Shown piece by piece: positions 1 to 17,964 of a stretch of 19,497 nucleotides of DNA. This DNA is from a virus. The notes under the pieces were generated by a model that had not been told where the DNA came from, searched no databases, and worked only from the letters and a program-made list of their open reading frames with translations. The number at the start of each line of letters is the position of its first letter. The stretch's first letter is position 1. Position numbers and translations under genes: made by a program. Location of the stretch: UHGV virus genome UHGV-0127427; one strand, written 5' to 3'.

Positions 1-1
1 T

Positions 2-1693
2 ACGATTTTTTCCGAATTCTGCGGTTCCCCCGACATCCATCATCTGACGTTGCCATGGACACCAGCCAGTGTCGCACAGCGTAACGGTCGCGGTGCCCGA
101 GTTGGCTCCAACCGTGCAAGCGTTCGCGTTCATTACTACTGCGGCAAGGGTTCTTTCGATGAATACCGACTGAAGACGCTGAAGCGTAAAGCAGGCTGGA
201 TCTCCGATATCCTCCGTTCAGATAAGTCAGAAATGGAGAACGCCGACGCCAACGATATGATCGAAATGCAGATGTATACCGCTAAGGATGATGGCGAACG
301 TCTGGCAATGATGCAGGTTCAAATGGATAAGGCGAAAGCCGCGCAACGCGCCCGCCAGAAAGAACAGGCCGCTATCGACCTTCAGAACTACATCAAGGCG
401 CAACATGCAGCTGGCGAGGATGTTGCGGCTCTTACCGCTGAATTAGAGCGAAGTAAAGCGGAACTTGAAAAGACCACCGCCGAGGTAGCTAAATTCAAAC
501 AGGCGGTAATGGCCAAAGCAGCTGATAATGCAGACTGGAAGGCCCGCTGGGGTAGCGTCCATCACACAGACCGTACGTTGTTAGCACATTATCGCGCGTC
601 GTTGAAAAGCGCCATTCAGCGCAAGGCTAATATCACTCAAGCCATCTCCCGCTATGAGAAATTATTGAACCGTACTCAGAAGGCCGCGACGGATATCAAA
701 CGCCTGCGCCCGCTGGTGGAGGATGCAATAAATAAAGGCATTCTGGATGTTGATCCTGATCTGGTTAACCATGCGAATGAGTTCCTTGTTATCGGCGATC
801 GCTCATGGCGTGTAGGCCAATACTACGATTGTGCCGGTGATATCGTTCGCATTAAGTCGCTGGACTTCGACAGCCAGCGCGCAGACGTGGAGATCATCTT
901 TACCTTCAAAGGCACCAAATCGGGTAACTGGGATGTGAAGACGCTGGATAAACAGGTGGATGTAACTCCCGATGAAGATGCTGTTATGCAGAAAATCAGT
1001 GGTGGCGTCTCCATCGCCGGGATTAACGACATCATTTCCTGTGACGATTTCTACCGTTTCCAGCAGCGCGGCATGATCAAAATCACTGACTCATACGGCG
1101 TTCAGACTACAGAGTCAGGCTATAGCATTGATTTTGTTGGTACCTATACGGACCCACTGAAGCATGCGGTTTACCCGGATCGCCGTGACGGCGCGCTGAA
1201 GTCGTCAATTGCAAAATGGGTGCTTGGTATGATGTCGGAAGGGAATAACCGCCAGGTCCGTTTGGCAGAAGTATTCCTGACTGAACTGTTTGGCTCCAAT
1301 TATGGCGAAGTAATCGCGTCATACGGAGATACGCTATCCCCTGAAGCAATTCAGGAGAAAATAGCGGATGCGATCGCCAGAATGCCGGAGAAAACAAGCC
1401 AGGGGGCTACTCGTAACGGGGATTCTGAACTTGAGGTCACCAATGCCATTTTCGGTACCCATGAGTTCCGGGCGTCAGATTATGAGATCACCACAGCACA
1501 GTTTGGCACCATTGGCATTTACAGCAATAAAGACGAGATCAAGCAGGCAATGGACGCTGCAAGCGCGCGTATTGCAGCAGAACGGAAAGCCAATCTGAAT
1601 CATGCAGTCGCCGCGCTGACTCAATCGTGGGTAACAGCAATCAGGGAGGCCGCCACCACAGGGAAATCACACCGGCAATTGCGGATGTCGTAA
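2..1693 (+). CDS. darB: DarB-like protein, C-terminal ~560 aa (5' end lies outside the window)
   Basis: Reading frame is open from base 2 to the stop at 1691-1693 (the track's start at 50 is a TTG inside the open frame). A helicase motif VI-like QRNGRGAR lies near the visible N-terminus. Followed in the same orientation by ulx- and lxc-like genes as in P1. Assignment is by synteny and motif, not homology search. Confidence 0.5.
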   Translation, partial: TIFSEFCGSPDIHHLTLPWTPASVAQRNGRGARVGSNRASVRVHYYCGKGSFDEYRLKTLKRKAGWISDILRSDKSEMENADANDMIEMQMYTAKDDGERLAMMQVQMDKAKAAQRARQKEQAAIDLQNYIKAQHAAGEDVAALTAELERSKAELEKTTAEVAKFKQAVMAKAADNADWKARWGSVHHTDRTLLAHYRASLKSAIQRKANITQAISRYEKLLNRTQKAATDIKRLRPLVEDAINKGILDVDPDLVNHANEFLVIGDRSWRVGQYYDCAGDIVRIKSLDFDSQRADVEIIFTFKGTKSGNWDVKTLDKQVDVTPDEDAVMQKISGGVSIAGINDIISCDDFYRFQQRGMIKITDSYGVQTTESGYSIDFVGTYTDPLKHAVYPDRRDGALKSSIAKWVLGMMSEGNNRQVRLAEVFLTELFGSNYGEVIASYGDTLSPEAIQEKIADAIARMPEKTSQGATRNGDSELEVTNAIFGTHEFRASDYEITTAQFGTIGIYSNKDEIKQAMDAASARIAAERKANLNHAVAALTQSWVTAIREAATTGKSHRQLRMS

Positions 1694-1710
1694 ACGACGG
1701 CTCTAAATTT

Positions 1711-2322
1711 ATGGATGCCTATCAAATGGATGCGGTGCAGTTGCCATCAGCCTATGGGCAACTCAGCTATCGCATGACCTACAACCTGGTATCAATGTTT
1801 TCCGACCTTGCCATCCTTGGGCTGGTGGACCTTAACGAGGTTACGCCGGAATTGCTTAGCATGCGCAAGAATCATGTTGAGATATTGCAGAGAATTAACA
1901 CGGTTCTTGCCGGGCGCACCGATGAAGAGAAACAGGCCGACGCTGATCGGATAAACCTGGCCCTAGGCAACATCACGGAGGAAGAAATTGCCGCCAGAAA
2001 CGAGAAACAAGAAGAGTTATCATCAATACAGGGTGATGCCACCAGCATAGCTCAGTCTCTTGGTCTGAATTATCGCGTATCCACCGCCGACCTGAAGATG
2101 ATGTACGCACCAAAATTCGCAGCTGGTGAGGTATTTGGGCTTCAGGAGGCGTCCGGCATGAAAGGCGTTCTTTTCCGTGCTAAAGACGCAATCAAGGAAA
2201 AATTCGGCGCTCGCTGGCTGCCAGCGAAGGCGAAGAACAGCGATTTCCCGGGCAACTGGTGGATTATCGAGACAAAACACAACGTGGCGGACGTTCTGGC
2301 CGTCATCCAACAATACGCATAA
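1711..2322 (+). CDS. hypothetical protein (203 aa from ATG 1711; the ORF extends up to GTG 1627, overlapping the darB-like stop in another frame)
   Basis: Long ORF with protein-like composition, same strand as flanking genes, ATG 18 nt after the upstream stop; no strong Shine-Dalgarno. Could alternatively be a frameshifted continuation of the upstream gene. Confidence 0.45.
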   Translation: MDAYQMDAVQLPSAYGQLSYRMTYNLVSMFSDLAILGLVDLNEVTPELLSMRKNHVEILQRINTVLAGRTDEEKQADADRINLALGNITEEEIAARNEKQEELSSIQGDATSIAQSLGLNYRVSTADLKMMYAPKFAAGEVFGLQEASGMKGVLFRAKDAIKEKFGARWLPAKAKNSDFPGNWWIIETKHNVADVLAVIQQYA

Positions 2323-2355
2323 CAGGAGCGCCCGGTTCGCCGGGCGTCGCATAAT

Positions 2356-2796
2356 ATGGCCACACTATCTGATACAATAAAACCGAATAAAACATATCTT
2401 GAGGCGGTACTCCGTACAGCGTTGTTAGGAAAGACAGAAGACGAATACGTTGATTTCTTCCTGTCAGGGCTACGCGGGCGATTACTGAAAAATCCCCGCC
2501 TGTACCGCAGCTATGGCCCATACTGGCCGGAAATTAAAAAATTATTACTGGAGCGCGGTTATGGTAATTTCGGTCGTCTCGTTGACCGTGACGTTCGCAA
2601 ATTTTACCGTTATGACCGCCCGGCGCTAACACTCATAGCCGCGACGCTCTACAGCCAGGAGCGTTTTGATAATGGTCAGATATACTCAGCCTGGCATTTA
2701 CTGCCAGTCCCTGAAGAAGTTGACGACCAGGACTATGAGTTTGAGTCTTACGATTTGGAAGTTGAAGCCTTGGCACAGGCTGGAGAGAAAACTTGA
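2356..2796 (+). CDS. ulx: Ulx-like protein (gene upstream of lxc), 146 aa
   Basis: ATG-initiated ORF whose stop TGA (2794-2796) overlaps the TTG start of the downstream 82-aa lxc-like gene; position matches P1 ulx. Positional assignment only. Confidence 0.5.
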   Translation: MATLSDTIKPNKTYLEAVLRTALLGKTEDEYVDFFLSGLRGRLLKNPRLYRSYGPYWPEIKKLLLERGYGNFGRLVDRDVRKFYRYDRPALTLIAATLYSQERFDNGQIYSAWHLLPVPEEVDDQDYEFESYDLEVEALAQAGEKT

Positions 2797-3041
2797 AAAA
2801 GCGATACTACACAGTAAAGCATGGGACGCTACGAGCATTACAAGAGTTTGCTGACAAGCATAACGTTGAGGTGCGCAGGGAAGGGGGAAGTAAAGCTCTG
2901 CGCATGTACCGTCCGGACGGGAAATGGCGGACGGTCGTCGATTTCAAAACAAACAGCGTTCCCCAGGGCGTCCGCGACCGGGCATTCGAAGAATGGGAGC
3001 AGATCATCATAGATAATGCTCTGCTACTAAATGCTGACTGA
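2793..3041 (+). CDS. lxc: Lxc/Bof-like C1 co-repressor, 82 aa, TTG start
   Basis: 82-aa ORF (the size I recall for P1 Bof/Lxc) beginning with TTG 6 nt downstream of GGAGA, overlapping the upstream stop (TTGA); no in-frame ATG until codon 38. Confidence 0.6.
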   Translation: MKKRYYTVKHGTLRALQEFADKHNVEVRREGGSKALRMYRPDGKWRTVVDFKTNSVPQGVRDRAFEEWEQIIIDNALLLNAD

Positions 3042-3300
3042 GTTTAATATTACAATATTATCTGGGAGATAAATGCATCTTATTTCCCAGATGATAACTG
3101 ATGTTTTACATATTCACATGGTGTACAATTATAATACTGCCTAAATAGGCACACAAAGTACGATATGCTACTAAAACCACAACTTTTTGATACTTGTTTG
3201 AGGGGGCGGGTTTGCTTTAGTAATTTAATAGCAAAAGCCATTCGTGTATCAAGTAATAACTTACTGAAGGAGGTGTTTTCTAATAAGAGTTTTTTCTTTA

Positions 3301-3801
3301 TTAAACTCTCACTATGTATAGATAATCAGTTAAGTCTCTTAGTTTCCAATGTTTAGATACATCTGAAAGAAATATGCTGCGTACTTTCCCTGAGAAAGTA
3401 GGCATACCAGACTTAAGAAAAGCTCTAAGGTTGTCAACATCACTAAAAATTGAAAGTAATGAAAAAGTTAAAGCATCCTTAAAATCAGGATGTATATGAT
3501 TCTGGTCACTTATATTATCGATCATCCTGATTAATAAATCAGGATAAGCAAAAGACTTTTTTAGCAAATGTGGGCATTTATCCAGAAGTTGCTTCCCTTG
3601 GTGATTGTGACAAGATAAATAGTTTCTTACAGCACTATCATTAAGTTCGAATTCGATATATTTATCTGAATAGGTTTGTAAGAATTCGCGTTCAGAATGT
3701 TTAAGCAACAGCACATCACCATAATTTAATATTAAGAAATCCTTAAGAAATTGAAAATTTATCGGTTTCTTTATAAGGATGAAGTAACAGACTCCTGACA
3801 T
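3301..3801 (-). CDS. hypothetical protein, orphan gene in the AT-rich island (start ATG 3801 preferred; ORF extends to ATG 3813)
   Basis: 166-170 aa ORF in strongly AT-rich DNA; GGTGG lies 5 nt upstream of ATG 3801; no motif recognised. Confidence 0.4.
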   Translation of the reverse strand: MSGVCYFILIKKPINFQFLKDFLILNYGDVLLLKHSEREFLQTYSDKYIEFELNDSAVRNYLSCHNHQGKQLLDKCPHLLKKSFAYPDLLIRMIDNISDQNHIHPDFKDALTFSLLSIFSDVDNLRAFLKSGMPTFSGKVRSIFLSDVSKHWKLRDLTDYLYIVRV

Positions 3802-4035
3802 AGCTACCACCATTCTAAAGAGGCTTTGAACAAGAATAGAGATACAGCAGCACTGAAATCAAGAAGTTGTGCAAAAAATAAAAATATTGATTTGTGTCAT
3901 AGTTGCTGCTTTTTATTATTTAATTTTTATCAATTTCACTACAGATAAATAAATTGACATAGTGTGTAACCCCTGTAAATATAAAGGGCACTTTATCTGC
4001 TAAAGCCAACCAATTTAAAAATAGAGGGTGGGAGC

Positions 4036-4726
4036 ATGGAAGTTATCTACATAGTAGAACCAATCATTTCCACAAGCACTAACAAGTTGATAGCAGTGGA
4101 AGTGTTGAGCAGATTTTATTCCAACGAGGGGGGCTATTCTTTCTACTCAGAAAGTATTAGGTATGTTTACAAGCAAGATGAAGATTAACTTGCTAAAATC
4201 TCAACTTAACACAATAATCAAATATAAGTATTTTTTTGAATGCCATAATATATTATGCTCTATCAATGTAGATTATGATACCTGTTTATATATATATGGC
4301 AATAAACAAATTCAAGAACTACTAATAAACAATAAATTTATAGCGATTGAGATATCAGAAAACTATCCTGATTTAAGCGATGAGGATTACATCATATCCT
4401 TTCTACTGACTTTGACAGATAATGTTTGGCTTGATGATTTTGGAAGTGGTAACGCCACCATGAAAGCATTAATTAAAAATAAATATCATGCAATAAAACT
4501 TGATAAGTCATTTTTTCAAGAGCATATGATTAAGCCTCATTTTGATGTCATTATTAGCAATTTAAAAAAGTTATGTCCGAATATCATCGCTGAAGGCGTC
4601 GAAAACATTGATTGTCATAAGTTATCAAAAGGGATAGGGCTATGGGGCACTCAGGGATATTTTTTCCCATCAATTCCGCTGACGGAGATTGAGTCCATAG
4701 ATAGTAAGTGGCTATCAGATTTATGA
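4036..4726 (+). pseudogene. EAL-domain gene (degenerate EAL-only type) split by a frameshift: frame 1 4036-4188 (50 aa, EVL motif), frame 2 4163-4726 (187 aa)
   Basis: Frame 1 starts at ATG 4036 behind GAGGGTGGGAGC and encodes the EAL-type N-terminus (EPIISTSTNKLIAVEVLSRF). Frame 2 carries the remaining EAL signatures in canonical order: DDFGSGNATMKAL (DDFGTG), IKLDKSFF (KIDRSF), IAEGVE, QGYFFPSIP (QGYLFSRP). The two frames overlap around a G6 run at 4128-4133. Confidence 0.55.
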
Positions 4727-4779
4727 GATGCAGAGAGTTAGGATATTGATATGAACATCTAAGCACCTCATTACTGTGC

Positions 4780-5232
4780 TTAAAAGATGTTATCCTTACC
4801 TGTTAATTTACCTTGAGGAACTTTAGTGAGCTCCATCCGATAAAATGCTTTTATCATATTTACAAATGGCTCATATGGTGAATATTCGTTGTCTTGTTTA
4901 GTAACGGTGTCTGTCATTGTCCTGATGTAGTCTGCGCTTACCACGTTGTTGTTTGCTTCAATTAGTACCGGCCTGCCGTTCATGAAGGGATCACGCAACC
5001 TTACACGCTGGCCAACTCGACCGGTAATAAAGCTGTTTTCCTCTTCCACCAGCACGATAAAACCCTTTTCCTCTTTTTCTCGCAATTCGCGCAGCAGCTG
5101 GAGTTCCATATCGCGGCGGCGTTCAGGGTAGCTGGTCCGCTCAGCCATTATCAGCTCATTGTTGATCCATGCAGCAGTCATTGACGCCGGTTTGCCGACG
5201 CTCATTGAAACAACGCATATTTTCTTATCCAT
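4780..5232 (-). CDS. mat: Mat-like protein (P1 mat position), 150 aa from ATG 5232
   Basis: ORF between ref and the island; ATG at 5232 preceded by GGGG; the track start at 5259 is a non-ATG upstream codon. Positional assignment. Confidence 0.45.
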   Translation of the reverse strand: MDKKICVVSMSVGKPASMTAAWINNELIMAERTSYPERRRDMELQLLRELREKEEKGFIVLVEEENSFITGRVGQRVRLRDPFMNGRPVLIEANNNVVSADYIRTMTDTVTKQDNEYSPYEPFVNMIKAFYRMELTKVPQGKLTGKDNIF

Positions 5233-5243
5233 AGCGCCCCTAC

Positions 5244-5269
5244 AAAAAAGAAAAGCCACCAGCGGCGGC
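5244..5269 (-). terminator. intrinsic terminator-like hairpin plus U-run downstream of ref, ending 11 nt upstream of the mat start
   Basis: Minus-strand sense GCCGCC-GCU-GGUGGC (6-bp stem including one G.U) followed by UUUUCUUUUUU. Confidence 0.45.
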
Positions 5270-5420
5270 TTAGCAATACAACTGAAGGTAGCGCCCGGTA
5301 CTCAGACTGTGCCGTCCATGGAATATTTGAAAGGGGATCCATCCGTACCGGGCATGTGATGATTCTGACTGAAGTCACTTGTCAGTTGTCAATCATTTAT
5401 CATTAAAAATAATATATTTA

Positions 5421-5981
5421 TTAGTGCATGATGTTTGCCATCTCATAGGCGTCAGCCAGTAACTCCATCTCTGACTTGTTCAGCAGGGTGAATTCTTTCT
5501 TGCCTCCAACCACACCATCGGCATGAACAGGGACCAGCCAGGGGTATTTTGCTCTTACTTCAGCCGGAGCTGCATGCTGGTGGTGCCATCTACAAAGAGG
5601 CAATTGCTTTTTATGACAACCCGGCGCGGTACGACCGGCGATATGGTGCAGAGACATCTCATTAGATATTACTCCATGCATATAGCAGGCAATGCAGGGG
5701 AGAGTGCCAAGAGCATTGGCGATGCGCCGTTCCTCCGCCGTTGGTGTTCTCCCCTTCAAGCCACGAGATTTTATTTTTACCGCGCTTTTCCGCGTTTTGC
5801 TGGCTGGTGGGCGCTCTTTCTGTTTAGCGATACGGCGGTCGAGAGTATCCCGCATTTTCTGATATTGAGATTCTCGCCAGACCGGATCAGCCAACTTCTC
5901 CCGTTGCCGAGCGATCGCTCGTTCTCTGGCTGCCTTCTGCCACTTGCGGCACTGTTCAATTTTTTGTTCGATTGTTTTCAT
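5421..5981 (-). CDS. ref: Ref, recombination enhancement function (HNH-family endonuclease), 186 aa
   Basis: 186-aa ORF starting MKTIEQKIEQCRKWQK with Cys/His-rich HNH core (CIACYMHG...HH...CHKKQLPLCRWHH); matches P1 Ref as I recall it; located between mat and cra/cre as in P1. Confidence 0.9.
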   Translation of the reverse strand: MKTIEQKIEQCRKWQKAARERAIARQREKLADPVWRESQYQKMRDTLDRRIAKQKERPPASKTRKSAVKIKSRGLKGRTPTAEERRIANALGTLPCIACYMHGVISNEMSLHHIAGRTAPGCHKKQLPLCRWHHQHAAPAEVRAKYPWLVPVHADGVVGGKKEFTLLNKSEMELLADAYEMANIMH

Positions 5982-5985
5982 ATGG

Positions 5986-6014
5986 CAAAAAAAAAAGGCG
6001 GCCTAATGGCCGCC
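5986..6014 (-). terminator. intrinsic terminator / attenuator-like hairpin (7-bp GC stem, 4-nt loop) plus U10, 5 nt upstream of the ref ATG
   Basis: Minus-strand sense GGCGGCC-AUUA-GGCCGCC followed by ten U, then GCCAU-AUG(ref). Confidence 0.5.
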
Positions 6015-6081
6015 AATGATGTCAAGGAGTGAAGTAATGGCAACGTCTTCGTAGTTGACAAAAACTGCGGCTCAATTATAG

Positions 6082-6098
6082 CGATATATTAGAGCAAT
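6082..6098 (-). promoter_or_regulatory. C1 operator-like site (Op2-type) overlapping a candidate ref promoter
   Basis: Minus-strand sense ATTGCTCTAATATAT (14/17 to ATTGCTCTAATAAATTT) directly followed by CGC and a perfect TATAAT, about 90 bp upstream of ref. Confidence 0.65.
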
Positions 6099-6204
6099 GA
6101 TAGATATTTTGTTTATCGCTAATCACATTTTTTCACTTCAGTACCTGTGTGCTATACTCCTTCTTGATTGATTGGATGCGGAATACAAACCCGCTCTTTT
6201 GTGC

Positions 6205-6232
6205 AGCCTGGCTCCTTGCCAGGCTTTTTTTT
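6205..6232 (+). terminator. plus-strand intrinsic terminator (AGCCUGGC-UCCUU-GCCAGGCU followed by U8)
   Basis: 8-bp GC-rich stem, 5-nt loop and a run of 8 T on the plus strand; no plus-strand CDS upstream, so it probably ends a short non-coding transcript. Confidence 0.5.
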
Positions 6233-6542
6233 ATTTCATCATGGAAGTTGTTAACGCTTTGGACCTTGCTGAACTGATTGAGAGGGCTTTGTCAACGTGC
6301 CCCAAAAATTCGCCAAACTCAGACATCACTTTAGCAAAACCGCGCCGTGCTTCTTCCTCGGTGGCATTCATCACGAAATGTTCAGCACCACGCATACTTT
6401 TGACAGGGAACGCAACGGATATTGAATCAATATCAGGCATTCTATCGCTCAGCTTTACAGTGACAATGACGGCTGGCGACTGAATATTAGTGCTTACAGA
6501 CAGCACTACATATTTTCCGTCGATGTTGAAATCCTTTCTCAC
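6231..6542 (-). CDS. Cra-like hypothetical protein (cre-associated position); start uncertain (GTG 6542 or ATG 6440)
   Basis: ORF immediately downstream of cre on the same strand with protein-like composition (EEEARRGFAKVMSEFGEFLGHVDKAL); no strong RBS at either start. Confidence 0.4.
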   Translation of the reverse strand: MRKDFNIDGKYVVLSVSTNIQSPAVIVTVKLSDRMPDIDSISVAFPVKSMRGAEHFVMNATEEEARRGFAKVMSEFGEFLGHVDKALSISSARSKALTTSMMK

Positions 6543-6558
6543 ATGTCACCATAAATAT

Positions 6559-6575
6559 CAAAGAATTAGAGCAAT
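6559..6575 (-). promoter_or_regulatory. C1 operator-like site in the cre-cra intergenic region
   Basis: Minus-strand sense ATTGCTCTAATTCTTTG (13/17 to consensus; first 11 positions perfect). Confidence 0.5.
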
Positions 6576-17911: not shown

Positions 17912-17942
17912 AAAAAAATGCTGGTGGGCGCACTCCACCAGC
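17912..17942 (-). terminator. intrinsic terminator downstream of the 420-aa gene
   Basis: Minus-strand sense GCUGGUGG-AGUGCGC-CCACCAGC followed by AUUUUUUU. Confidence 0.5.
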
Positions 17943-17964
17943 ATTAAAAGTGACACTGTAACTA

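Follow-up and report, generated by a model that had tools for sequence, protein, structure and literature searches.

The hairpin lying directly ahead of the phage P1 gene ref is very probably a Rho-independent terminator, serving as an attenuator in the 5′ leader. In the 19,497-nt stretch of DNA analysed here (the window), it stands between a promoter overlapped by a C1 operator and a start codon without a Shine-Dalgarno (SD) sequence. The element itself is already known, being the P1 ref attenuator described in 1988. Windle and colleagues are said to have described, in that year, a Rho-independent terminator ahead of the ref start. The title of their article names an "attenuator-antiterminator control" (Windle, Laufer and Hays 1988, J Bacteriol 170:4881). 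What is new here is the comparative evidence, from three lineages, for selection on the RNA structure, together with evidence that only the P1 lineage carries a second promoter, P1ref. The ref stretch of the P1 GenBank records (AF234172) carries no terminator annotation for the hairpin, and our search of the literature for mapped P1 transcript starts or 3′ ends found nothing relevant.

The window is a P1-type plasmid prophage whose minus strand corresponds to the P1 plus strand, and its cre-c8-ref stretch is 97.6% identical to P1 (AF234172, AF234173, NC_005856). The ref ORF (5421..5981, minus strand, ATG at 5981) encodes a RecA-dependent HNH nuclease of 186 aa, which matches the Pfam family RecA_dep_nuc (PF16786, E = 1.3e-50) and is 98.4% identical to P1 Ref; an identical protein is encoded on the E. 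coli plasmid NZ_CP119401.1. Ref harms the host, lowers lysogenization and enhances killing by ciprofloxacin (Ronayne 2016), and the tightness of the ref shut-off is therefore biologically relevant. Leftward of about codon 90 of mat (window 1..4950), the departure from P1 is complete, and the 3′ half of mat and the res/mod region of P1 are replaced. Four ORFs there have no Pfam match (50..1693, 1627..2322 and 2356..2796 on the plus strand, 3301..3813 on the minus strand), and a fifth (4163..4726, plus strand) contains a partial EAL domain (E = 4.5e-11).

Read along the minus strand, the sequence ahead of ref runs CCTTGACATCATT, GGCGGCC, ATTA, GGCCGCC, TTTTTTTTTT, GCCAT and then ATG AAA. In the RNA, this corresponds to the hairpin GGCGGCC-AUUA-GGCCGCC (5997..6014, ΔG −15.0 kcal/mol), in which 6014..6008 pairs with 6003..5997 to give seven G-C pairs and a 4-nt loop. 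A U10 tract (5987..5996) lies directly 3′ of the stem, and a 5-nt spacer devoid of an SD, GCCAU (5982..5986), separates it from the AUG. The original prediction of a hairpin and U10 tract ending 5 nt before the ref ATG, with no SD, is thus borne out in each of its elements, and the comparison with the P1 reference proposed there found an identical hairpin followed by U8. The upstream 20 nt pair with the anti-SD at only +1.4 kcal/mol; about 97% of random 20-mers drawn from the window pair more strongly, and no long ORF of the window has a weaker value.

The hairpin combines the features expected of an intrinsic terminator, namely a GC-rich stem with a short loop, an immediate and uninterrupted U tract, and structural conservation. 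Its d'Aubenton-Carafa-type score of 70.8 is the highest in the window (the runner-up site reaches 54.1, and the U8 allele of P1 scores 58.1). Terminator-like sites are enriched in the window, with 30 found against 17.1 ± 4.4 in shuffled sequences, and the ref hairpin ranks at the top of them. When the same palindrome is read on the plus strand, it lacks a U tract and scores −24.3, and it would therefore serve as a one-way terminator for ref-sense transcription. The stem pairs have a probability of 0.99-1.0 in the fold ensemble of the whole leader, and the 106-nt ref leader folds with a z-score of −2.66.

The promoter P2ref (6075..6103, minus strand), mapped by alignment from the annotation of AF234172, has its −35 element at 6103..6098 and a TATAAT at 6080..6075. 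The C1 operator Oref (ATTGCTCTAATATATCG, 6098..6082, minus strand) lies over it; both the operator match and the P1 annotation agree with the predicted TATAAT and overlapping operator some 90 bp upstream of ref. C1-operator-like sites number six in the window, compared with 0.10 expected by chance. Oref differs from P1 by three substitutions in its 3′ half, and the TATAAT and the operator core of P2ref are invariant among the relatives. The leader from P2ref to the ref ATG is about 87 nt long. Its portion between the inferred P2ref start and the hairpin (6015..6068, minus strand) contains a CU-rich, anti-SD-like stretch (CACUCCUU, 6033..6026, minus strand) 5′ of the terminator, as well as the motif GUUGCCA (6044..6038).

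P2ref had been regarded as the only convincing promoter for ref, and this view did not hold. A second predicted promoter, P1ref (6016..6043, minus strand; TTGCCA, 16 nt, TG-n-CATCAT), is annotated as a sigma-70 promoter in AF234172 and was recovered independently by our promoter consensus scan. Its −10 element (6021..6016) ends 1 nt upstream of the 5′ arm of the hairpin, and a start 5-9 nt past this element (6011..6007) deletes three to seven of the seven stem pairs, leaving a residual stem of −7.6, −3.4 or 0 kcal/mol. Transcripts from P1ref would begin inside the stem and should therefore largely escape termination. The proposal of a near-leaderless ref mRNA does not fit either, since a read-through mRNA has the whole leader of about 87 nt and a P1ref mRNA would have about 25-30 nt. 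A TTGACA at 6025..6020 was considered as another −35 element and rejected, as no −10 element lies at a spacing of 16-18 nt.

We then compared the leader among relatives, which were fetched via the Ref protein, so that the sample is not biased toward the hairpin. Across the 81 sequences of the P1 lineage (60 of them unique), the stem is invariant except for C-to-U changes at the base of the 3′ arm, which give G.U pairs on the ref-sense RNA only. The loop occurs as ATTA, ATCA or TAAA, U runs of 7, 8, 9 or 10 nt are seen (8 in 71 of 81), and the spacer before the ref ATG reads GCCAT, GACCAT or ACCTT. The window itself carries the rare T10 allele (5987..5996). Among the 60 unique sequences, two of 14 stem columns are variable, compared with 25 of the 54 remaining leader columns (Fisher p = 0.035) and three of the four loop columns. 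In the TGn and −10 element of P1ref, one of nine columns varies within the P1 lineage.

More distant Ref homologues were collected by tblastn against phages and plasmids; a search of genome contigs for Ref yielded three close loci only. Cronobacter phage JK004 and three Salmonella P1-like plasmids share the ref module, with a Ref of about 65% identity, in which a TATAAT overlapped by a C1-type operator (ATTGCTCTAATAATTAT) is followed by some 65 nt of leader, by a hairpin with U7-8 and finally by ref. Their hairpin, GACGGTC-TTCG/TTAG-GACCGTC, differs from that of P1 in two stem pairs, in each of which both partners have been replaced (A-U for G-C and U-A for C-G). In the covariation check, 100% of cells were paired, with one G.U, compared with 14-78% in controls with slid partners; the compensatory changes represent a single between-lineage split, and hence few independent events. 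RNAalifold returned the terminator stem as the sole consensus structure of the leader, which is poorly conserved between lineages outside the hairpin. Taken as a comparison of sequences, these data indicate that purifying selection maintains the RNA structure of the ref hairpin. For the Ref homologues of D6-type phages and of Klebsiella, Citrobacter, Vibrio and Aeromonas plasmids, no terminator precedes ref and the SDs are ordinary, and the terminator-ref architecture is confined to the clade of P1, JK004 and the Salmonella plasmids.

P1ref is missing from the JK004 and Salmonella lineages, where an 11-nt gap deletes the CATCAT, and no promoter-like site was found in them between the operator promoter and ref; their ref transcription must therefore cross the terminator. 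On the opposite strand, the ref leaders of these two lineages carry, in antisense orientation, a promoter-like site (ATGACA or TTGACA, 18 nt, AATTAT; 606..635, minus strand, in L085 and 531..560, minus strand, in L094), whose −10 element is the reverse complement of the sense TATAAT. The version of this site in the window has a 13-nt spacing and is unlikely to work.

Based on these elements, ref would be controlled as follows. Transcripts from P2ref, and any read-through from cra-cre-c8, would meet the 7-bp all-GC hairpin and U10 tract, which P2ref transcripts would reach about 55-80 nt past their start. The majority of them should end there, with the release of a leader RNA of about 80 nt, and ref would be transcribed only by polymerases that read through, possibly assisted during lytic growth by a phage antitermination function, as proposed in 1988. 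Translation would then begin 5 nt past the U tract without an SD, and the tract itself may play a part in this initiation. Repression, attenuation and weak initiation would thus act as three successive brakes on the toxic Ref. The P1 lineage alone has the weak extended −10 promoter P1ref, which, starting inside the 5′ arm, may add a low, C1-independent basal expression of ref.

The published measurements of ref mRNA bear on this scheme. By qPCR inside ref, that is, downstream of the hairpin, ref mRNA increases 73-fold after C1 inactivation, which is within the range of other C1-controlled genes; in the same work, the C1 site is said to occlude "one of the ref promoters" and H-NS binds the 5′ region (Ronayne 2016). 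This C1-dependent rise, together with the JK004 and Salmonella modules that lack P1ref, speaks for attenuation of the operator-controlled promoter as the mechanism that has been conserved, and P1ref is probably a lineage-specific, weak basal bypass. Hence, the earlier claim that ref expression depends on read-through or antitermination stands for the C1-controlled promoter, in agreement with the published model, but not for P1 as a whole, in which P1ref would offer another route.

A different division of labour could be envisaged, in which the hairpin mainly insulates ref from cra-cre-c8 and P2ref transcripts and ref is expressed from P1ref. On the minus strand, the ref hairpin is indeed the first terminator reached after cre and c8, and the annotation of P1ref, its near invariance in the P1 lineage and the predicted loss of three to seven stem pairs from its transcripts all fit such an arrangement. 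However, P1ref has no overlapping operator, whereas ref mRNA responds to C1 inactivation like that of other C1-controlled genes. Moreover, the JK004 and Salmonella elements retain the terminator without P1ref, and P1ref itself is no more than predicted and has a poor −10 element (a C at its first position), so we consider this arrangement unlikely. We regard it as extremely improbable that, instead of an RNA terminator, the palindrome is a protein-binding site at the DNA level or an inverted repeat that arose by chance. Its seven perfectly matched base pairs around a 4-bp spacer would suit a DNA site, but the U run is always present and on the ref-sense strand only, the stem changes its identity with compensation instead of staying fixed, the G.U-compatible changes fit the sense strand only, and the loop is free to vary. 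The general enrichment of terminator-like sites in the window, headed by this hairpin, also speaks against a DNA site.

It could also be asked whether the terminated leader is the actual product, as a C1-controlled sRNA of about 80 nt acting in trans, with the read-through into ref being secondary. The predicted 5′ stem-loop, single-stranded CU-rich seed and terminator with a long U tail resemble Hfq-type sRNAs, and each of the three lineages has a CU-rich stretch directly 5′ of the hairpin (in the other two at about 650..661 in L085 and about 575..586 in L094). At gathering thresholds, Rfam gave no matches in the window; a permissive scan gave sub-threshold sRNA matches, including some in the leader, but these lie well below the gathering scores and are driven by the terminator hairpins. 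No target of the leader was found, and outside the hairpin the lineages show little conservation of its sequence. The Salmonella leaders have a GGAG SD past the U tract, with which the CU stretch pairs in minimum free energy folds; this pairing points to a role in cis and suggests, as far as the folds go, an SD clamp around the terminator. The P1 ref offers no SD for the CU stretch to clamp. We therefore regard a trans-acting role of the terminated leader as unlikely, and the reading in which this RNA is the main product as very unlikely indeed.

Returning to attenuation as the preferred reading, we looked for elements in the leader that could regulate read-through in cis, and found no alternative or antiterminator helix conserved across lineages. 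Attenuation by a leader peptide was rejected, because the leader has neither an ATG or GTG nor an SD, and its sole TTG frame is shifted by the length of the U run, which varies from 7 to 10; among the P1-lineage relatives, these indels shift all upstream reading frames. An antiterminator helix between GUUGCCA and the 5′ arm, forming before the 3′ arm is made, is weak, overlaps the −35 element of P1ref and is not conserved. Long-range pairing between the A-rich beginning of ref and the U-rich 5′ part of the leader was likewise discarded, as it is broken in three relatives (L019, L066 and L081).

In comparison with the P1 ref attenuator (Windle 1988; AF234172, Lobocka et al. 2004), the window has the same locus, hairpin sequence, operator-overlapped promoter, P1ref and ref start, and differs in its U10 in place of U8 and in the three substitutions in the 3′ half of the operator. 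As in the lambda N (tL1/tR1) and Q (tR′) systems, a promoter under repressor control is separated from its gene by a strong intrinsic terminator, and for P1 a phage-encoded read-through factor has been proposed. However, no conserved nut- or qut-like element was found in the ref leader, and the likeness to lambda is one of logic only. The trp and his leaders also have a terminator in the 5′ leader right before the first structural gene, but, unlike in their ribosome-mediated attenuation, the ref leader has no leader peptide and no conserved alternative helix. A recent account states that a P1 antitermination protein is without direct experimental evidence, yet that there are "strong indications" of one, and cites the 1988 study and the P1 genome paper for P1 antitermination (Piya 2023).

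Similar junctions had been predicted ahead of mat and of a HAD-like gene, the latter at the pmgS-pap boundary. Hairpins do precede both genes, but as terminators they are much weaker than that of ref, and both are followed by an SD. The mat-leader hairpin with its U-rich run (5271..5253, minus strand), downstream of Pmat/LPmat, scores 9.9. The pmgS-pap intercistronic hairpin with U5 (17945..17917, minus strand), within the C1-controlled pmgR-pmgS-pap unit, scores 12.6, and is followed by the strong SD of pap, GAGGAGG (−12.8 kcal/mol), and a TTG start; AF234173 has no terminator annotation at this hairpin. Both are ordinary, leakier hairpins, and neither combines a very strong terminator with the lack of an SD.

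The mat ATG annotated in P1 lies 79 nt past ref, and its frame reads through the mat-leader hairpin. In the 81 relatives, it is 109, 110, 111 or 112 nt away from the ATG that follows the hairpin, and the two are in frame in 35 of these; in the window, they are out of frame (G4, not G5). Hence, the true start of mat is likely the ATG at 5232, after the hairpin and with a GGGG SD. The N-terminus of Mat as annotated in P1 (about 37 aa; 5232..5342, minus strand, in the window and 2477..2590 in L001) is probably non-coding.

All three hairpins, those of ref, mat and pmgS-pap, lie in C1-controlled units. They might be common targets of P1 antitermination, with the CU-rich stretch forming part of the recognition site or an sRNA seed, which we put forward tentatively, as a rather doubtful proposal. 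If it were true, the ref locus and its natural variants (P1, JK004 and Salmonella) would be a ready reporter for finding the antitermination factor. These natural variants make the old question of a P1 antiterminator somewhat easier to test.

Two further elements were noted around c8. Between c8 and ref, back-to-back with P2ref, lies an sRNA-like unit (6130..6233, plus strand), in which a promoter-like site (6130..6158; TTTTCA, 17 nt, TG-n-TATACT) is followed by about 70 nt and by a strong plus-strand terminator with U8 at the c8 stop (6205..6225, score 54.1). The unit folds with a z-score of −3.2, lacks an annotation in AF234172 and gives no Rfam match that passes the threshold. The other element is a perfect C1 operator core (ATTGCTCTAATTCTTTG, 6559..6575, minus strand) in the interval that separates the cre stop from the c8 start; it is present in the window and in 70 of the 81 relatives, while it is missing, and unannotated, in the P1 reference. 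Its distribution among these sequences suggests that c8 may be C1-controlled in most P1-like elements.
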